A stretch of DNA of 29,766 bases, taken from the IMG/VR virus record IMGVR_UViG_2711768076_000016; one strand, given 5' to 3'. This document shows, in pieces, positions 1 to 6,239 of this stretch (position 1 is the first letter of the stretch; every line of letters begins with the position of its first letter). Origin of the DNA: a virus. Its lineage: Duplodnaviria; Heunggongvirae; Uroviricota; Caudoviricetes. Under the pieces are notes generated by a model. The model had not been told where the DNA came from, did not search any database, and saw only the letters and a list, made by a program, of their open reading frames with translations. The translations under genes were made by a program, and so were the position numbers.

Positions 1-690
1 AGCGAGAACATGACCACAATGCGACACGCGCCGGGCGCAATCCGTCTGTGCTGGCACTGCGATAACCAGTTGCGCGATCAGTTCACGGAACGGCTGGAAT
101 CAATGGCAACGGATAACTGTGCCCGCTGGGTATTGTCTGTTGTGCGTCGGGATCTCGGTTTTGATGATAGTCACGTTGTGACAATGCCGGAACTGTGCTG
201 GTGGCTGGTTCGTAATGACCTGGCGGATGCCTTACCGGAAAGTGCAGCCCGTAAGGCACTGAGATTACCGAAGCCTGTTGTGCCGTCTGTCACCCGGGAA
301 AGTGACCTTGTGCCTTCGGTTCCTGCCACCAGCATCATCCAGGATAAGGCGAAAAAGGTGCTGGCGCTGAAAGTGGATCCGGAGTCGCCGGAGTCTTTTA
401 TGTTACGCCCAAAACGTCGCCGCTGGGCTAATGAAAAGTACACGCGCTGGGTTAAGACACAGCCGTGTGCATGTTGTGGAAAGCTTGCTGATGATCCCCA
501 CCACCTGATAGGCGACGGTCAGGGGGGAATGGGTACAAAAGCGCATGACCTCTTTGTGTTGCCTTTGTGCAGAAAGCATCACGACGATCTGCATGCGGAT
601 ACCGTGGCATTTGAAGAAAAGTATGGCTCCCAGTTGGAGCTGATATTTCGTTTTATCGATCGTGCGCTGGCAATTGGCGTGCTGGCGTAA
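1..690 (+). CDS. DUF968-family prophage protein (YdfU-like), probably 5'-partial
   Basis: ORF 10..690; the frame is open back to position 1, so the true start may lie upstream of the window. C-terminal Cys/His-rich region (CACCGK...DPHHLIGDG...CRKHHDDLH) typical of DUF968 proteins that sit just upstream of Q in lambdoid prophages. Family assignment is from memory of motifs, not a search. Confidence 0.55.
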   Translation, partial: SENMTTMRHAPGAIRLCWHCDNQLRDQFTERLESMATDNCARWVLSVVRRDLGFDDSHVVTMPELCWWLVRNDLADALPESAARKALRLPKPVVPSVTRESDLVPSVPATSIIQDKAKKVLALKVDPESPESFMLRPKRRRWANEKYTRWVKTQPCACCGKLADDPHHLIGDGQGGMGTKAHDLFVLPLCRKHHDDLHADTVAFEEKYGSQLELIFRFIDRALAIGVLA

Positions 691-703
691 GTGGAGAACG
701 AGC

Positions 704-1456
704 ATGAACCTTGAAGCCTTACCAAAATATTACTCCCCAAAATCTCCAAAATTGAGCGATGACGCACCGGCGACAGGCTCAGGTGGTTTAACGATTACGG
801 ATGTGATGGCTGCGCAGGGGATGGTGCAGTCGAAAGCACCGCTTGGGTTTGCCTTATTCCTGGCAAAAGTTGGTGTTCAGGATCCTCAGTTTGCGATTGA
901 AGGTCTGCTCAATTACGCGATGGCACTGGATAACCCGACATTGAACAAATTGAGTGAAGAAACCCGGTTACAGATCATCCCTTACCTTGTGAATTTTGCC
1001 TTTGCTGATTATTCCAGGTCTGCGGCAAGTAAGGCTCGCTGTGAGCATTGTGCTGGTACTGGATTTCATAATGTATTGCGCGAAGTGGTGAAACACTCCA
1101 GAAGCGGGGAATCTGTTATCAAGGAAGAGTGGGTGAAGGAACTATGTCAGCATTGCCATGGTAAGGGAGAAGTCAGCACCGCGTGCAGAGGGTGTAAGGG
1201 TAAAGGTATTGTCCTGGATGAAAAAAGAACCCGGCTTCATGGCACGCCTGTTTATAAGATTTGTGGGCGTTGCAGTGGAAACCGGTTTAGCCGTTTACCA
1301 ACCACACTGGCGCGGCTTCATGTCCAGAAGCTGGTACCAGACCTGACGGATTATCAGTGGTACAAAGGATATGCAGATGTCATTGATAAACTGGTTACAA
1401 AGTGCTGGCAGGAGGAAGCTTACGCTGAAGCACAATTGAGAAGGGTGACGAGATAA
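704..1456 (+). CDS. Late-gene antiterminator Q-like protein (about 250 aa) with four CxxCxGxG zinc-finger repeats
   Basis: ORF 662..1456; likely start is ATG 704, preceded by GGAG at 693-696. Four CxxCxGxG repeats (CEHCAGTG, CQHCHGKG, CRGCKGKG, CGRCSGNR). Lies immediately upstream of a promoter-plus-terminator region and the lysis cassette, the canonical Q position. Confidence 0.6.
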   Translation: MNLEALPKYYSPKSPKLSDDAPATGSGGLTITDVMAAQGMVQSKAPLGFALFLAKVGVQDPQFAIEGLLNYAMALDNPTLNKLSEETRLQIIPYLVNFAFADYSRSAASKARCEHCAGTGFHNVLREVVKHSRSGESVIKEEWVKELCQHCHGKGEVSTACRGCKGKGIVLDEKRTRLHGTPVYKICGRCSGNRFSRLPTTLARLHVQKLVPDLTDYQWYKGYADVIDKLVTKCWQEEAYAEAQLRRVTR

Positions 1457-1487
1457 GCGATTTTCGCCGAAGATAACGACATAATAC

Positions 1488-1516
1488 TTGTATTTCTCAA
1501 AAAATATGGATAAGAT
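1488..1516 (+). promoter_or_regulatory. Candidate late promoter (pR'-like): -35 TTGTAT, 17-bp spacer, -10 TAAGAT
   Basis: Hexamers read directly from the sequence between the Q stop codon and the terminator at 1565-1587; position matches the lambdoid late promoter on which Q acts. Confidence 0.3.
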
Positions 1517-1564
1517 TTTCTCAACGATGGGGCTTGTGTATCTATCGTTGAACAATTTTTACGA

Positions 1565-1587
1565 CCTCGCTATTGCGAGGTTTTTTT
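1565..1587 (+). terminator. Rho-independent terminator (tR'-like) downstream of Q
   Basis: Stem CCTCGC / GCGAGG with loop TATT followed by TTTTTTT; a second T-run follows at 1592-1598. Confidence 0.55.
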
Positions 1588-1624
1588 ATGGTTTTTTTCT
1601 ATTCAATCTACATCAAAATCAATG

Positions 1625-1633
1625 TGTTATAAT
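1625..1633 (+). promoter_or_regulatory. Extended -10 promoter (TGtTATAAT) for the moron operon
   Basis: Perfect TGnTATAAT at 1625-1633, about 38 bp upstream of ATG 1671, which has an AGGAG Shine-Dalgarno upstream of it. Confidence 0.45.
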
Positions 1634-1670
1634 GTTTTCTGTAAAACAACATTAAAAACAGGAGAACATT

Positions 1671-1940
1671 ATGAAACTGACCTCTATCCATCTTGAAATA
1701 CTACGTCGAGTGAATGAATTGCAGCCAAAGGATTCTAGAATTCAGGCTGCATCATTACCTCATCTCTCAGCAAAAGAGGTTAACTTTGCTATTTCAGATC
1801 TTGCTGATATAGGTTTTATCGATGTTATACGAAGCAAATCTGCCGAAGGTGGATTGATTGCTAATGAGATAACGTCAAAAGGTTTTGCTTTTTTGAGTGA
1901 GATTGGCGCTGAAAAAAATTCATCGATGAGCACTCATTGA
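1671..1940 (+). CDS. Hypothetical 89-aa protein (moron gene 1)
   Basis: ORF with AGGAG Shine-Dalgarno; AT-rich compared with the flanking phage genes; no recognisable motif. Confidence 0.5.
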   Translation: MKLTSIHLEILRRVNELQPKDSRIQAASLPHLSAKEVNFAISDLADIGFIDVIRSKSAEGGLIANEITSKGFAFLSEIGAEKNSSMSTH

Positions 1941-1954
1941 TTTCTGCTTCAATC

Positions 1955-1972
1955 GGCTGCCAATTGGCAGCC
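1955..1972. repeat. Perfect 18-bp palindrome GGCTGCCAATTGGCAGCC
   Basis: Read directly; lies 15 bp after the stop of ORF 1671..1940 with no following T-tract, so operator-like rather than terminator-like. Confidence 0.5.
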
Positions 1973-2137
1973 TAAACTGTAAAGTGAATTTAAAATCGCC
2001 TACAATTGATGCTTAAATTTTGTTCTGTATCATCTGCAGGTTTAGGGATATCACAGTAGCTTTCTGACAAGAAGAGTTCTTTTCTTCTACCAATGAAGTG
2101 GTTATGTTAACCTGCGCTAAATCGAGACTGGTGCGGA

Positions 2138-2944
2138 GTGGAATCGAAAGTGTCATATTTTTACAGAAGCAAGAATATTTCAGGTGTTTCTATAAATGAA
2201 GATAGCTTGATTAGCTTAAGCACGGCAATTGTCGAACGCTGCGTTAAAATGAATGAGCAAGCTCAAAAGGAAAGTAGGGAAGTTTGTGCTCAATGTGTTT
2301 TTTTTATTTTGTTCGATGGTAAGGGGTATAAAGTTGATTCTATCGGTGAGCTTGTGAAATACTTTAGACAGGCCACTAGGATTGATCAAATAATTTTTAC
2401 TATTGAAACTTATCAAAGTCGACAGTCTAACAGGATGAATGGATCTTGGATGGAGCTACGAATTGATGAGAGGAATTCAAATAGCAGCACAATGATTGTA
2501 GCATCGGAAGATAATGAGTGGGTTGACTCGTTATGGATTACGATTCAGGATTTACTTAACAAGTGCAAAAATAAATTTAGATTTTTTAGAACAGCTTGGA
2601 CTATGTTAAGTATCCAGATTTCAGGTGTGACAGTTGGCTTTTTGCTTAGCTTATGGACAGCCTCAAAACTGGCGCCAAAACTATCAATCGATGGTGCATT
2701 TGCTTTATCATTTATTTGTATCTTTATTTTGTTTTCGAACTTATGGAGCTTTGCTATTCCATTAATAATTAAGCTTATCGACTTTTTGTTTCCTAGTGTT
2801 AAGTTTGTTATTAATGGTAAAAATTACTTTCACTGGAGTGTCCAGGCTATAATTGGAGCGATTGCCAGTGCGGTTATATTGTATTTTATTAGCTCCATGT
2901 TGCTTTTTGCATTAGAAATGTTAAATAGCATCATTAAGAAATAG
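2138..2944 (+). CDS. Hypothetical membrane protein (soluble N-terminal domain of about 150 aa, three predicted C-terminal TM helices); moron gene 2
   Basis: ORF 2138..2944 with a GTG start (uncertain; first in-frame ATG is at 2249). Hydrophobic segments TAWTMLSIQISGVTVGFLLSLW, FALSFICIFILFSNLWSFAIPLII and AIIGAIASAVILYFISSMLLFAL. Strongly AT-rich. A weak hairpin plus T7 tract follows at about 2975-3002. Confidence 0.45.
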   Translation: MESKVSYFYRSKNISGVSINEDSLISLSTAIVERCVKMNEQAQKESREVCAQCVFFILFDGKGYKVDSIGELVKYFRQATRIDQIIFTIETYQSRQSNRMNGSWMELRIDERNSNSSTMIVASEDNEWVDSLWITIQDLLNKCKNKFRFFRTAWTMLSIQISGVTVGFLLSLWTASKLAPKLSIDGAFALSFICIFILFSNLWSFAIPLIIKLIDFLFPSVKFVINGKNYFHWSVQAIIGAIASAVILYFISSMLLFALEMLNSIIKK

Positions 2945-3052
2945 TTAATGAATTAGTTATAATTACATCAATTCTATGGCTGCCAAATGGTGGCCTTTTT
3001 TATTCCTCTCATTTCTATTTCTGAGAGGACTCACTGCAATAAGAGGTGGCTA

Positions 3053-3439
3053 ATGTCCGATCCGATTTCCGGCACAGGGTTAGCTGGTGGAGCCCTAACG
3101 GGCGCTAGTATTTATGGACTGCTGACCGGAACTGATTACGGCGTTGTATTTGGCGCATTTGCAGGGGCTGTATTCTACATAGCAACAGCAGCAGATCTGA
3201 GTGCATCGCGCCGACTAGCATATTTTATCGTGTCATATATTGCCGGGATCCTTTGCTCTGGGTTGGTTGGCTCCAAGCTGGCGAACTTGACCGGATACAG
3301 TGATAAACCTCTGGATGCTATTGGTGCCGTAATCGTCTCTGCTTTAGCCGTTAAAATCCTGACGTTCCTGAATAATCAGGATATCGGCTCGCTGGTGGCG
3401 CTCATAACGCGCCGGGGAGGTTCAGGTGGAGCTAAATGA
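3053..3439 (+). CDS. Putative holin (about 128 aa, multiple TM segments)
   Basis: ORF 2987..3439; likely start is ATG 3053 with a GAGGTGG Shine-Dalgarno. Gly/Ala-rich hydrophobic helices; sits directly upstream of the endolysin. Confidence 0.5.
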   Translation: MSDPISGTGLAGGALTGASIYGLLTGTDYGVVFGAFAGAVFYIATAADLSASRRLAYFIVSYIAGILCSGLVGSKLANLTGYSDKPLDAIGAVIVSALAVKILTFLNNQDIGSLVALITRRGGSGGAK

Positions 3440-3707
3440 CCCGACAGCAACTATAAATGCGCTGTTATGTGCTTGTGTTGTTATTACTCTGATGTTTTAT
3501 CGTCGTGGCGACTCCAGACATCGACCGTGGATATCTCGCTTAGCGTGGCTGCTTACGGTCATTTATAGCGCCGTACCGCTGGCGTATCTGTGCGGTATCT
3601 ACCCTTATTCATCGTGGGCCACTATCGTGGCCAACATTATTTTCCTGTCCGTGCTGGTCGCCGTCAGAGGCAATGTGGCACGTCTGGTTGACCATCTGAG
3701 GCACTAA
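3426..3707 (+). CDS. Small membrane protein, second holin or antiholin candidate (93 aa)
   Basis: GTG start 5 nt after GGAGG; two to three hydrophobic helices; translationally coupled to the endolysin (TAATG overlap at 3705-3709). Confidence 0.45.
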   Translation: MELNDPTATINALLCACVVITLMFYRRGDSRHRPWISRLAWLLTVIYSAVPLAYLCGIYPYSSWATIVANIIFLSVLVAVRGNVARLVDHLRH

Positions 3708-4321
3708 TGAACCAATCACAATTTCAGCAGGCGGCTGGTATCAGCGCCGATGTTTCTGCACGCTGGTTTCCGCACATTGATGCGGCAATGAAAGAGTTTG
3801 GTATTACAGCAGTTAATGATCAGGCCATGTTCATTGCACAAGTCGGGCATGAGTCTGCAGGATTTACTTCGCTGGCAGAGAGTTTTAACTACTCGGTTGA
3901 AGGGCTGAAGAAAACCTTTGGTAAGCGTCTGACGCCGTACCAGTGCGAAATGCTGGGGCGTGTCGATGGTAAACAGGTCGCTCACCAGCCGCAAATAGCC
4001 AATCTGGTTTACGGTGACCGCATGGGGAATAACAGCCAGGGTGACGGCTGGAAATATCGCGGTCGTGGCCTGCTTCAAATTACTGGCCGTGAGAACTACA
4101 CCAAATGTGGTGCGGCGCTGAAACTTGACCTTGTCAATACACCAGAATTGCTAACGCAGGAGCGACATGCGGCCCGTTCGGCGGCGTGGTACTTCACGTT
4201 ACGCGGTTGCTTGATGTATTCGGGTGACGTGGAACGTGTAACGCAGATTATTAACGGCGGACAGAATGGCATTAAAGACCGCCGTGAACGTTACGCCAAA
4301 GCAAAAGCCGCACTGGTATGA
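3707..4321 (+). CDS. Endolysin, glycoside hydrolase family 19 (chitinase-like lysozyme)
   Basis: 204-aa ORF with a GHESAGF motif and overall resemblance to GH19 phage endolysins; located between the holin-like genes and the spanins. Confidence 0.7.
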   Translation: MNQSQFQQAAGISADVSARWFPHIDAAMKEFGITAVNDQAMFIAQVGHESAGFTSLAESFNYSVEGLKKTFGKRLTPYQCEMLGRVDGKQVAHQPQIANLVYGDRMGNNSQGDGWKYRGRGLLQITGRENYTKCGAALKLDLVNTPELLTQERHAARSAAWYFTLRGCLMYSGDVERVTQIINGGQNGIKDRRERYAKAKAALV

Positions 4322-4779: not shown

Positions 4780-5196
4780 TCAATTATCTCCTTTAAAGGA
4801 GTCGTATTCACCCCAATCAGCAAACCCAATCGGTCTTTTAGGGGTCTCTAAGCATAAGCGTTTTTTTCGGATTAGCAGGACATTTATTTGAGATACATGC
4901 TGAACAAGTTCTACAGGACTGCCATCCTCCAGAGTACCAATGAAAGAAATTAATGATGGATTCCAGTAGCTTATGTCTGTGAAATGAAATTCAATGTTTT
5001 TACCAAAGCTAGCTAGTTGTCCTCCTACCTCATACTCTTCTTCAAGTTCACGGTGAAAATCATTTATCCAGCATATAAGGCGTCTATGAAATTCATTTGC
5101 AAGATTGTAGTCCTTTGGAACATATGGCTGTGAGTATTTGAGGAAATCATTCATGTAGTTATTTGTCATCAGGGCGTCCTTTACGAGCATAACCAT
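4780..5196 (-). CDS. Hypothetical protein (up to 138 aa) on the opposite strand; moron at the position lambda uses for bor
   Basis: Minus-strand ORF, AT-rich, between the lysis cassette and the packaging genes. Start uncertain (in-frame Met codons at 5196, 5169 and 5154). No similarity to Bor noted. Confidence 0.45.
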   Translation of the reverse strand: MVMLVKDALMTNNYMNDFLKYSQPYVPKDYNLANEFHRRLICWINDFHRELEEEYEVGGQLASFGKNIEFHFTDISYWNPSLISFIGTLEDGSPVELVQHVSQINVLLIRKKRLCLETPKRPIGFADWGEYDSFKGDN

Positions 5197-5735: not shown

Positions 5736-6239
5736 GTGCCGCATATGGCTGGAACGGCGGGGCGTTCCGGGCGTCGCCCCAAGCCAACGGCGCGCAAGGC
5801 GCTGGCCGGAAACCCCGGCAAGCGAGCCCTGAATAAAGATGAACCTGTTTTTACGCCCATCAAAGGTGTTGAGCCACCGGAGTGGTTCGCTGAAGAAGAT
5901 CTCCCTCTCGCCACGATCATGTGGCAACTGACAACTAAAGAACTCTGCGGTCAGGGCCTGCTGTGCGTGACTGACCTCGCAGTGCTTGAGCGGTGGTGTG
6001 TGGCCTATGAGTTCTGGCGACGTGCCGTGAAAAATATTGCCAGACAGGGCAACACCATCACCGGTGCAATGGGCGGTATGGTCAAAAATCCGGAGCTGAC
6101 CGCCAAAAAAGAACAGGAGTCCGAGATGAGCAGTACGGGGGCAATGCTCGGACTCGACCCCAGCAGCCGCCAGCGTCTGATTGGCCTGGCGGGGAAGAAG
6201 AAAGCCACTAACCCGTTTCTGAAAATCATCGAATCATGA
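5736..6239 (+). CDS. Terminase small subunit (P27-family-like)
   Basis: 167-aa ORF immediately upstream of, and overlapping, the large terminase gene (ATGA overlap at 6236); size and position fit a small terminase. Confidence 0.65.

Follow-up and report, generated by a model that had tools for sequence, protein, structure and literature searches.

The slot between the antiterminator gene Q and the holin gene S is known to carry cargo, namely stx1/stx2 and nanS-p in Stx phages and the porin gene nmpC/lc in DLP12 and PA-2, which lies 3' of pR'/tR' and 5' of the holin. Genes in this slot have a foreign base composition and are transcribed from a local promoter in the lysogen and, on induction, by Q-dependent read-through (PMC8065619). 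Here we analyse a block in the same position, for which we propose a matching logic. It belongs to a stretch of 29,766 nucleotides (nt; IMG/VR record IMGVR_UViG_2711768076_000016, hereafter the window) that represents an E. coli lambdoid prophage, the region being 100% identical in strain AMSHJX01. The block contains two open reading frames, ORF1 and ORF2, whose products are unrelated to those of the established cargo and show no homology to a toxin, esterase or porin. We suggest, tentatively, that ORF2 is a self-sufficient, membrane-acting effector of phage exclusion or abortive infection that consists of a single protein.

Several other described systems bear comparison with ORF2. Lambda RexA/RexB is prophage-encoded, expressed in the lysogen, and combines a cytoplasmic sensor with an effector in the inner membrane that causes membrane collapse when the lysogen is superinfected, which is close in concept to what we propose for ORF2. 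However, Rex consists of two proteins, with four transmembrane (TM) helices in RexB, whereas ORF2 would unite both roles in one chain with three; Rex lies in the immunity region rather than the late operon, and with no sequence or PADLOC match the likeness is conceptual only. Lactococcal AbiZ resembles ORF2 in that one polypeptide joins a soluble N-terminal part to C-terminal TM helices; it is described, in the passage of PMC11364771 that cites it, as acting via the lysis clock by causing premature holin-dependent lysis. An action of this kind would make a role in defence compatible with the holin-adjacent position of ORF2, but AbiZ has no detectable homology to ORF2, is plasmid-borne and operates in a Gram-positive host, and the link between ORF2 and the holins is one of gene order. 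HK97 gp15 and P22 SieA are single small inner-membrane exclusion proteins, each encoded by a temperate-phage moron that brings its own promoter and terminator; they are expressed from the prophage and block incoming phage DNA, and differ from ORF2 in lacking its 140-amino acid (aa) cytoplasmic domain, in sequence and in genome position. Finally, ORF2 homologues are found in the kinds of carrier from which other compact, single-gene, AT-rich cargo has been described, that is, in the P2 gpA-gpQ (old/tin) locus, a documented defence hotspot (PMC9122126), and in integron cassettes of the sort that carry defence genes (PMC9122126; bioRxiv 10.1101/2024.07.02.601719). As far as we searched, the hotspot and integron studies neither name nor test a member of the ORF2 family, and location in a hotspot does not by itself prove that the family functions in defence.

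The product of ORF2

ORF2 (2150-2944, plus strand) encodes 264 aa from a GTG start. The first-pass annotation, which had been made from the letters and a list of open reading frames, placed the start at 2138 and predicted a protein of 268 aa, a start that has to be given up: PGAP calls the GTG, more than 60 homologues begin with MAxYLRDEQI, which aligns with MSYFYRSKNI at GTG 2150, and the protein matches phrog_30208 at 8.5e-162. The soluble N-terminal domain and three C-terminal TM helices that the same annotation had read from the sequence are borne out by hydropathy and by an AlphaFold2 (AF2) model. Built from 66 sequences, with a predicted local distance difference test score (pLDDT) of 87.4, the model shows an alpha/beta domain followed by a short amphipathic helix and then by three long ones. 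Residues 1-140 (2150-2569, plus strand) make up the cytoplasmic alpha/beta domain, which includes the family motif IRFDxKGY[RK] (ILFDGKGYK in the window), and residues 149-263 (2594-2938, plus strand) the TM part, with helices at 149-177, 183-213 and 226-263 in the AF2 secondary structure.

Hydropathy and charge counts across the family agree on a topology with the N-terminus inside and the C-terminus outside: family members have 3.8 lysine or arginine residues (K/R) before the first TM helix, a short and acidic first loop, and 4.1 K/R in the second loop, which in ORF2 itself (residues 212-228) is likewise K/R-rich. Beyond the IRFDxKGY[RK] motif, conserved positions of the family include R6, D106, W124, N141 and R147, and polar residues are conserved within the TM helices themselves (Q156, S196, N197 and Q232). 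Compared with a 77%-identical homologue, ORF2 has a ratio of non-synonymous to synonymous divergence (dN/dS) of 0.16, from which we conclude that it is a real gene under constraint.

Divergence is unevenly spread along the gene. Relative to its homologue in L002, a phage of another enterobacterium, the half encoding the N-terminal domain has a dS of 1.6 and a dN of 0.196, the TM half a dS of 0.35 and a dN of 0.044. The uneven synonymous divergence suggests either that a recombination breakpoint lies within ORF2 or that the putative sensor domain turns over faster.

As to known families, ORF2 has no match in Pfam, NCBIfam, PADLOC or among PDB sequences, and family and domain searches turned up no transporter, enzyme or signalling motif. 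Nor does family searching assign ORF1 to a named family, as the first-pass annotation had anticipated for both proteins. A likeness of the ORF2 model to the CYTH family was considered and dismissed, the Foldseek matches being weak, with TM-scores of about 0.14. ORF2 is also no obvious holin: it has no holin match in Pfam or PHROG, whereas the two holins downstream of it match strongly, and where class I holins measure about 70-150 aa and have the N-terminus outside and the C-terminus inside, ORF2 has 264 aa, a 140-aa cytoplasmic domain and the reverse orientation.

Distribution and carriers of the ORF2 family

A single-sequence search recovered nine relatives of ORF2 and a profile search 71 clusters. 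An exhaustive HMMER scan of 1.84 billion representative proteins then raised the family to 230 representatives (clustered at 50% identity, E ≤ 0.001), nearly all of them 255-275 aa long, uniform in their full-length architecture and free of fusions. We regard them as an uncharacterised family of inner-membrane proteins without fold relatives. Its members come from marine, groundwater and gut habitats and from eight or more phyla or classes; no member was found in 50,697 phage records (megablast, tblastn) or in 72,556 plasmids (tblastn).

Three observations bear on how these genes move. To begin with, their base composition tends to be foreign. We found 32 loci in species-representative genomes, 27 of which allowed the gene to be delimited; its guanine-cytosine (GC) content lies below that of the flanks in 22 of these, and is lower by 11.5 points on average and by up to 27. 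Moreover, the gene keeps no constant company: all-against-all BLAST of the neighbours revealed no conserved partner, and among the loci examined ORF1 is missing beside every ORF2 homologue outside the E. coli lineage of the window. Lastly, the carriers differ. Taken together, comparison of these loci portrays ORF2 as a compact, self-sufficient and often transferred single-gene unit.

Five lambdoid lineages carry the gene (the window, P0002, P0003, P0006 and L075), and between them they feature four Q families and two types of lysis cassette. In all five, ORF2 is located directly 5' of the first holin gene, and any other cargo in the slot, be it an N6/N4 methyltransferase, a 200-226-aa ORF, a 66-aa ORF or ORF1, invariably lies 5' of ORF2, closer to the promoter. 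The holins that ORF2 homologues accompany belong to two unrelated types, Phage_holin_8/3_7 and Phage_holin_2_1. The methyltransferase (PF01555) is found directly 5' of ORF2 in three other lineages of enterobacterial phages, L002 (4886-5941), L006 (4760-5806) and L011 (2541-3614), a pairing that thus recurs, with 75-96% mutual identity of the enzymes. In L010, the Q-holin slot also holds a homologue of PDC-M11A (436-1849, minus strand, 1.6e-131) with an ASCH-domain neighbour, which indicates that the slot can house candidate defence systems.

One lambdoid homologue is shorter than the rest. In L006 (P0003, Hafnia/Citrobacter), there is an in-frame stop at about codon 36 (~5960-6010) and the annotation starts at Met38, giving a protein of 231 aa without the first two strands and helix 1 that may be a pseudogene or a shortened variant; the phrog_30208 profile (231 aa) was built on this short form.

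Outside lambdoid prophages, an ORF2 homologue lies between the replication gene A (gpA) and the portal gene (gpQ) of a P2-like phage (L074), the hotspot introduced above. Sites resembling attC (...TAAC...GTTR..., for example GCATAAC...GTTATGC) flank the homologue in L019, L022, L029, L037, L038 and L042. Such sites were counted only if the canonical ...TAAC/GTTR... core was present at the gene borders, as judged by pattern search, fold search and inspection, since a relaxed pattern gives some false positives; the window copy has no attC. A protein family of integron cassettes adjoins the homologue in L022 and an integrase fragment does so in L033, while the cassette array of L019 also encodes PDC-S14 (2.5e-105) and an Argonaute-associated protein resembling restriction endonucleases. 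Other homologues adjoin a full-length AriA homologue (L015, 2.7e-77, where a gene for an IS110 transposase lies some 2 kb upstream), a PD-T7-4-like DUF4145 protein (L017) or HsdS (L044). Two are adjacent to an integrase gene (L014 and the P0071 contig); a search for a tRNA or att site in L014 found no tRNA between the integrase and the ORF2 homologue. Lone homologues also occur between housekeeping genes, such as SelO, RecG, ribonucleotide reductase, and nadD with the bio operon.

Two modules in the Q-holin slot

In the window, the block is preceded by a gene for a DUF968/HNH protein (10-690), the first in the gene order around it, and by the Q antiterminator gene (704-1456, PF03589). Directly 3' of the block follow a Phage_holin_8 gene (3053-3439), a second holin gene of the Phage_holin_3_7 type (3426-3707) and a GH19 endolysin gene (3707-4321). 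Between Q and the block, a terminator scan and RNA folding identify a tR'-like intrinsic terminator on the plus strand (1563-1582 plus a U-run to 1590; dG -13.7 kcal/mol, z -5.3). This terminator is the tR' analogue and forms the left border of the accessory block, itself remaining outside. GC content drops to 0.30-0.38 across the block (~1590-3010), compared with about 0.50 (0.46-0.56) in the flanks. The first-pass annotation had already noted a terminator after Q, an AT-rich block and an 89-aa ORF, all of which hold up.

Comparison with the related prophage L052 (NZ_CP182374) puts the edges of the block at ~1586 and ~3015. L052 is 95.6% identical to the window over 1-1585 and 80% identical from 3017, in the holin leader, onward; between the shared Q/tR' and holin leader it has an unrelated 85-aa ORF in place of the block. 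A different boundary emerges from L002 and L006, phages of other enterobacteria that match the window at 83-85% (84.7% for L002) over 2101-4269. The stretch they have in common starts 49 nt 5' of ORF2 and spans the terminator, both holins and the endolysin. By contrast, 1586-2100 on the plus strand, which comprises a promoter-like site, ORF1, a hairpin and a spacer (Module 1), has no counterpart in L052, L002 or L006. Because 1586-2100 is private to the lineage while 2101-4269 is common to other phages, what had been described as a self-contained two-gene cassette is in fact two juxtaposed modules, and that description also sits poorly with the absence of ORF1 beside other ORF2 homologues.

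The annotation's broader idea, that of accessory cargo in the Q-holin slot, stands, given the foreign base composition and a terminator shielding the holin: the region is a moron, built from two adjoining modules. It displays three features of morons in the Hendrix/Juhala sense, namely a position between phage genes, a deviating base composition and an intrinsic terminator of its own, the last of these predicted. ORF1 and ORF2 are separated by a gap of 209 nt, within which lie another hairpin, at 1955-1972, and the promoter-like site at 2006-2033. An Rfam search of 1400-3100 returned nothing above threshold.

ORF1 and ORF2 occur together only in one nearly clonal lineage of E. coli prophages. 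Among 5426 complete E. coli genomes, 41 carry ORF2, which is nearly invariant, and many of these come from poultry; all E. coli copies that we inspected are at least 99.1% identical, and 21 of the 22 are intact. In the sole disrupted copy (L054, GCA_900603045.1), a deletion of 11 nt cuts ORF2 short at codon 101 and leaves ORF1 intact. In three E. coli chromosomes (L055, L060 and L061), Q is deleted or truncated and the early genes upstream are lost; ORF1, ORF2 and the lysis genes are intact.

Elsewhere in the window, a second AT-rich gene (4780-5196, minus strand, GC about 0.35-0.39) separates the lysis region from the HNH/terminase genes. RefSeq annotates it as DUF6173, and it looks like another moron.

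Predicted transcription signals and a duplicated 3' element

ORF2 is followed, on the plus strand, by a compact arrangement of predicted signals. A promoter-like pair, TTAAGA-18-TATAAT (2934-2963, 10/12 consensus matches in the scan), overlaps the stop codon, and 14 nt after it starts the hairpin GGCTGCCAAATGGTGGCC (2978-2995; 7-bp stem with two G-U pairs, -11.4 kcal/mol, z -2.6). The hairpin had been credited with a tract of seven Ts; it exists, but the U-tract is T6 (2996-3001), followed by A and then TT. The predicted intrinsic terminator (2978-3001) separates ORF2 from the holin gene.

The arrangement of a -35/-10-like pair, a hairpin and a U-tract recurs in L002 and L006. L075 has a version of its own (AATTAGTTA...TATCAT...GAGCTGCCTTATGGCAGCTT) after a homologue that is only 32% identical in protein, and L010 has a different hairpin with T5 at the matching position. 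In L075 (1712-1774) and L002 (6821-6884), as in the window (2934-2995), AATTAGTTA, TAT[AC]AT and GCTGCC-N4-GGCAGC are kept. That these motifs persist at 32% protein identity suggests that the 3' element may have a role beyond simple termination. Further, a terminator before the holin, whether kept or replaced, is of no consequence to polymerase modified by Q; it would be required only for transcription without Q, so as not to switch on the holin. We see the retention of the terminator as the best indirect evidence that ORF2 would be expressed in the lysogen.

Upstream, the signals are more ambiguous. The extended -10 promoter previously proposed for ORF1 is present as a perfect TGTTATAAT (1625-1633, plus strand), 37 nt 5' of the ORF1 ATG and about 27 nt 5' of AGGAG; it has no usable -35. 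As TGNTATAAT occurs once in the 29.8-kb window, where 1.04 occurrences are expected by chance, the argument for a promoter here is one of position. The same caution applies 5' of ORF2, where a scan picks up TTGATG-16-TATCAT (2006-2033, plus strand, 9/12 consensus matches): sites of this kind are no more numerous in the region than expected by chance.

Repeats tie the two ends of the block together. Between the two genes lies the hairpin GGCTGCCAATTGGCAGCC (1955-1972, plus strand), with a perfect 7-bp stem and no U-tract (-15.7 kcal/mol, z -3.5). Its region is 84% identical to 2978-2996 and is thus a paralogue of the ORF2 terminator stem (repeat D3/I5). Likewise, AATCAATGTGTTATAAT at 1617-1633 is a paralogue of the -10 part of the ORF2 3' element at 2947-2963 (repeat D4). 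ORF1 thereby appears to lie within a second copy of a unit made up of a -10 box plus a GGCTGCC hairpin, with the -10 at 1625-1633 belonging to that copy. TTTCTG at 1636-1641 and 1941-1946 marks the inner edges of the duplicated unit around ORF1.

ORF1, a probable winged-helix protein

ORF1 (1671-1940, plus strand) encodes 89 aa and is preceded by AGGAG at 1660-1664. It matches phrog_32916, a PHROG of unknown function, over its full length (2.9e-61), and a search of 5.8 billion proteins yielded only near-identical copies, which always adjoin ORF2 in E. coli prophages. A PDB sequence search with ORF1 gave no match. Its Pfam matches, all below threshold, are to winged-helix families, the best being DUF2513 (2.4e-4; 21.8 bits against a cut-off of 29.6), followed by weaker ones to HTH_45 and wHTH-PRTase_assc. 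ORF1 also has the pattern ...DLADIGFIDV...wing...ITSKGFAFL, which we take to be typical of winged helix-turn-helix proteins. On this basis, ORF1 is probably a small winged-helix DNA-binding protein. Structure prediction, which had been proposed as a check on both proteins, was of uneven use: it gave a confident model for ORF2, for which no fold match was found, whereas the single-sequence AF2 model of ORF1 is poor (pLDDT 54) and too low in confidence for a fold search.

The predicted -10 and the start codon of ORF1 are enclosed by a perfect 8-bp inverted repeat, ATAATGTT/AACATTAT (I10, 1629-1636 / 1665-1672). The repeat may serve a winged-helix ORF1 as operator, or may have arisen by chance in AT-rich DNA.

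Defence, lysis control or lysogenic conversion

What, then, might ORF2 do? Its anatomy, topology, mobility, context and purifying selection, as described above, are matters of observation or computation; from them we infer a scenario that extends to expression in the lysogen, sensing, membrane action and an anti-phage phenotype. Imagine that ORF2 is made in the lysogen, where its own terminator would keep that transcription from the holin gene. The cytoplasmic domain would sense a cue from an infecting phage, whereupon the TM module might oligomerise or change state, thereby compromising the membrane or blocking entry so that the incoming phage fails. In this way, one protein would bring about abortive infection or the exclusion of superinfecting phages. 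During lytic growth of the prophage itself, Q-modified polymerase would read through and ORF2 would be co-expressed with the lysis genes. Module 1, with its extended -10 and ORF1, would be a lineage-specific addition that probably provides Q-independent transcription into the block, along with regulation.

A role in defence or abortive infection had been put forward in the first-pass annotation, and it is context rather than homology that speaks for it: homologues in the P2 hotspot and in integron cassettes, and neighbours such as AriA, PDC-M11A and PDC-S14, make defence a reasonable hypothesis and the reading that we favour. We also count in its favour that the block is intact in prophage remnants that have lost Q. 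Several findings weigh in the opposite direction. PADLOC-DB 2.0 has no family for ORF1 or ORF2 even at E ≤ 10, the ORF2 accessions are not mentioned in the DefensePredictor supplements and literature, and Foldseek searches of the ORF2 model against PDB and BFVD produced no match at E ≤ 0.001 and hence no informative fold. MADS/PARIS ATPases that seemed to recur beside ORF2 had to be rejected, the PADLOC matches being ordinary ABC transporters, and many chromosomal homologues are flanked by housekeeping genes. E. coli ORF2 departs from the family at three near-invariant residues (R54L, E79D and R80Q), and the predicted promoter at 1625-1633 is statistically unremarkable. Lastly, ORF2 lies next to the holin in every lambdoid lineage and, in the window, shares its mosaic block with the lysis genes, which would fit a function in lysis too.

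This last point leads to the main rival explanation, in which ORF2 is an accessory lysis protein, a partner or regulator of the holin (antiholin-like, a timer or a sensor) that is transcribed with the late operon. That ORF2 stays beside the first holin while the methyltransferase, ORF1 and the 66-aa ORF keep to the promoter-proximal side, that ORF2, terminator, holins and endolysin form one homology block with L002, and that a three-TM helical module broadly resembles holin-like membrane proteins are all as expected if ORF2 took part in lysis. If lysis were its business, however, we would not expect most family members to have no lysis genes nearby, as in the P2 gpA-gpQ slot, integron cassettes and islets among housekeeping genes, nor a conserved terminator between ORF2 and the holin. 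The association with two unrelated holin types, the missing holin match in Pfam and a topology unlike that of class I holins point the same way, and we consider a lysis function quite unlikely. Somewhat easier to entertain, albeit still unlikely, is that ORF2 is lysogenic-conversion cargo with a role in host fitness unrelated to phage, for instance as a membrane sensor, channel or stress protein. The slot is used by stx, porin and other conversion genes (for stx, see PMC8065619, a review of Stx phages), integron cassettes and AT-rich islets house many kinds of adaptive gene besides defence, there is no defence homology, and the nearly invariant gene has many avian and other animal carriers among the 41 E. 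coli genomes. Yet the very different habitats and phyla of the family argue against a niche-specific role. Its recurrence in a defence hotspot of P2 and next to AriA or PDC candidates also counts against this reading, as does the lack of any detected transporter, enzyme or signalling motif.

One might also wonder whether ORF1 and ORF2 constitute a toxin-antitoxin or addiction pair that stabilises the prophage, with ORF2 as membrane toxin and ORF1 as repressor or antitoxin. A gene for a small, predicted DNA-binding protein does lie 5' of a membrane-protein gene, the pair is strictly co-inherited in E. coli and kept in decaying prophages, and ATAATGTT/AACATTAT could serve as operator. However, in all other lineages ORF2 homologues occur without ORF1 or any conserved partner, so that a dedicated antidote to ORF2 is not required; 209 nt and a hairpin separate the two genes, which belong to different mosaic blocks; and it is ORF2 that is disrupted and ORF1 that is intact in L054, the converse not being seen in 22 copies. 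We therefore judge an addiction pair to be very improbable.

Returning to ORF2 as an anti-phage effector, a bolder version of this proposal can be sketched, in which we have somewhat less confidence than in the effector role as such. ORF2 may found a new family of single-protein membrane anti-phage effectors, composed of a cytoplasmic sensor and a three-TM module, that shuttles as one compact unit among integron cassettes, the P2 gpA-gpQ hotspot and the lambdoid late-operon slot. From its fixed position beside the holin in lambdoid phages, one could suppose that it works via the lysis machinery, or is timed with it, in the manner of AbiZ. The -10 box plus hairpin at its 3' end would then be a portable module for expression and insulation, into a second copy of which ORF1 was later inserted.

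Implications

Many candidate single-gene defences exist. ORF2 stands out among them by its invisibility to current tools, by unusually clear evidence for the swapping of carriers and by the testable link to the holin that it offers. If ORF2 is indeed anti-phage, a compact single-gene family has been missed entirely by current defence finders, and one unit would be exchanged among three carriers: integrons, P2-type hotspots and lambdoid late operons. Its adjacency to the holin would in that case provide a testable link between prophage defence and lysis control. If ORF2 tunes lysis instead, the accessory proteins of lysis would gain a new class. In both cases, the orphan ORF2 family comes with a confident structural model and is directly testable in E. 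coli.

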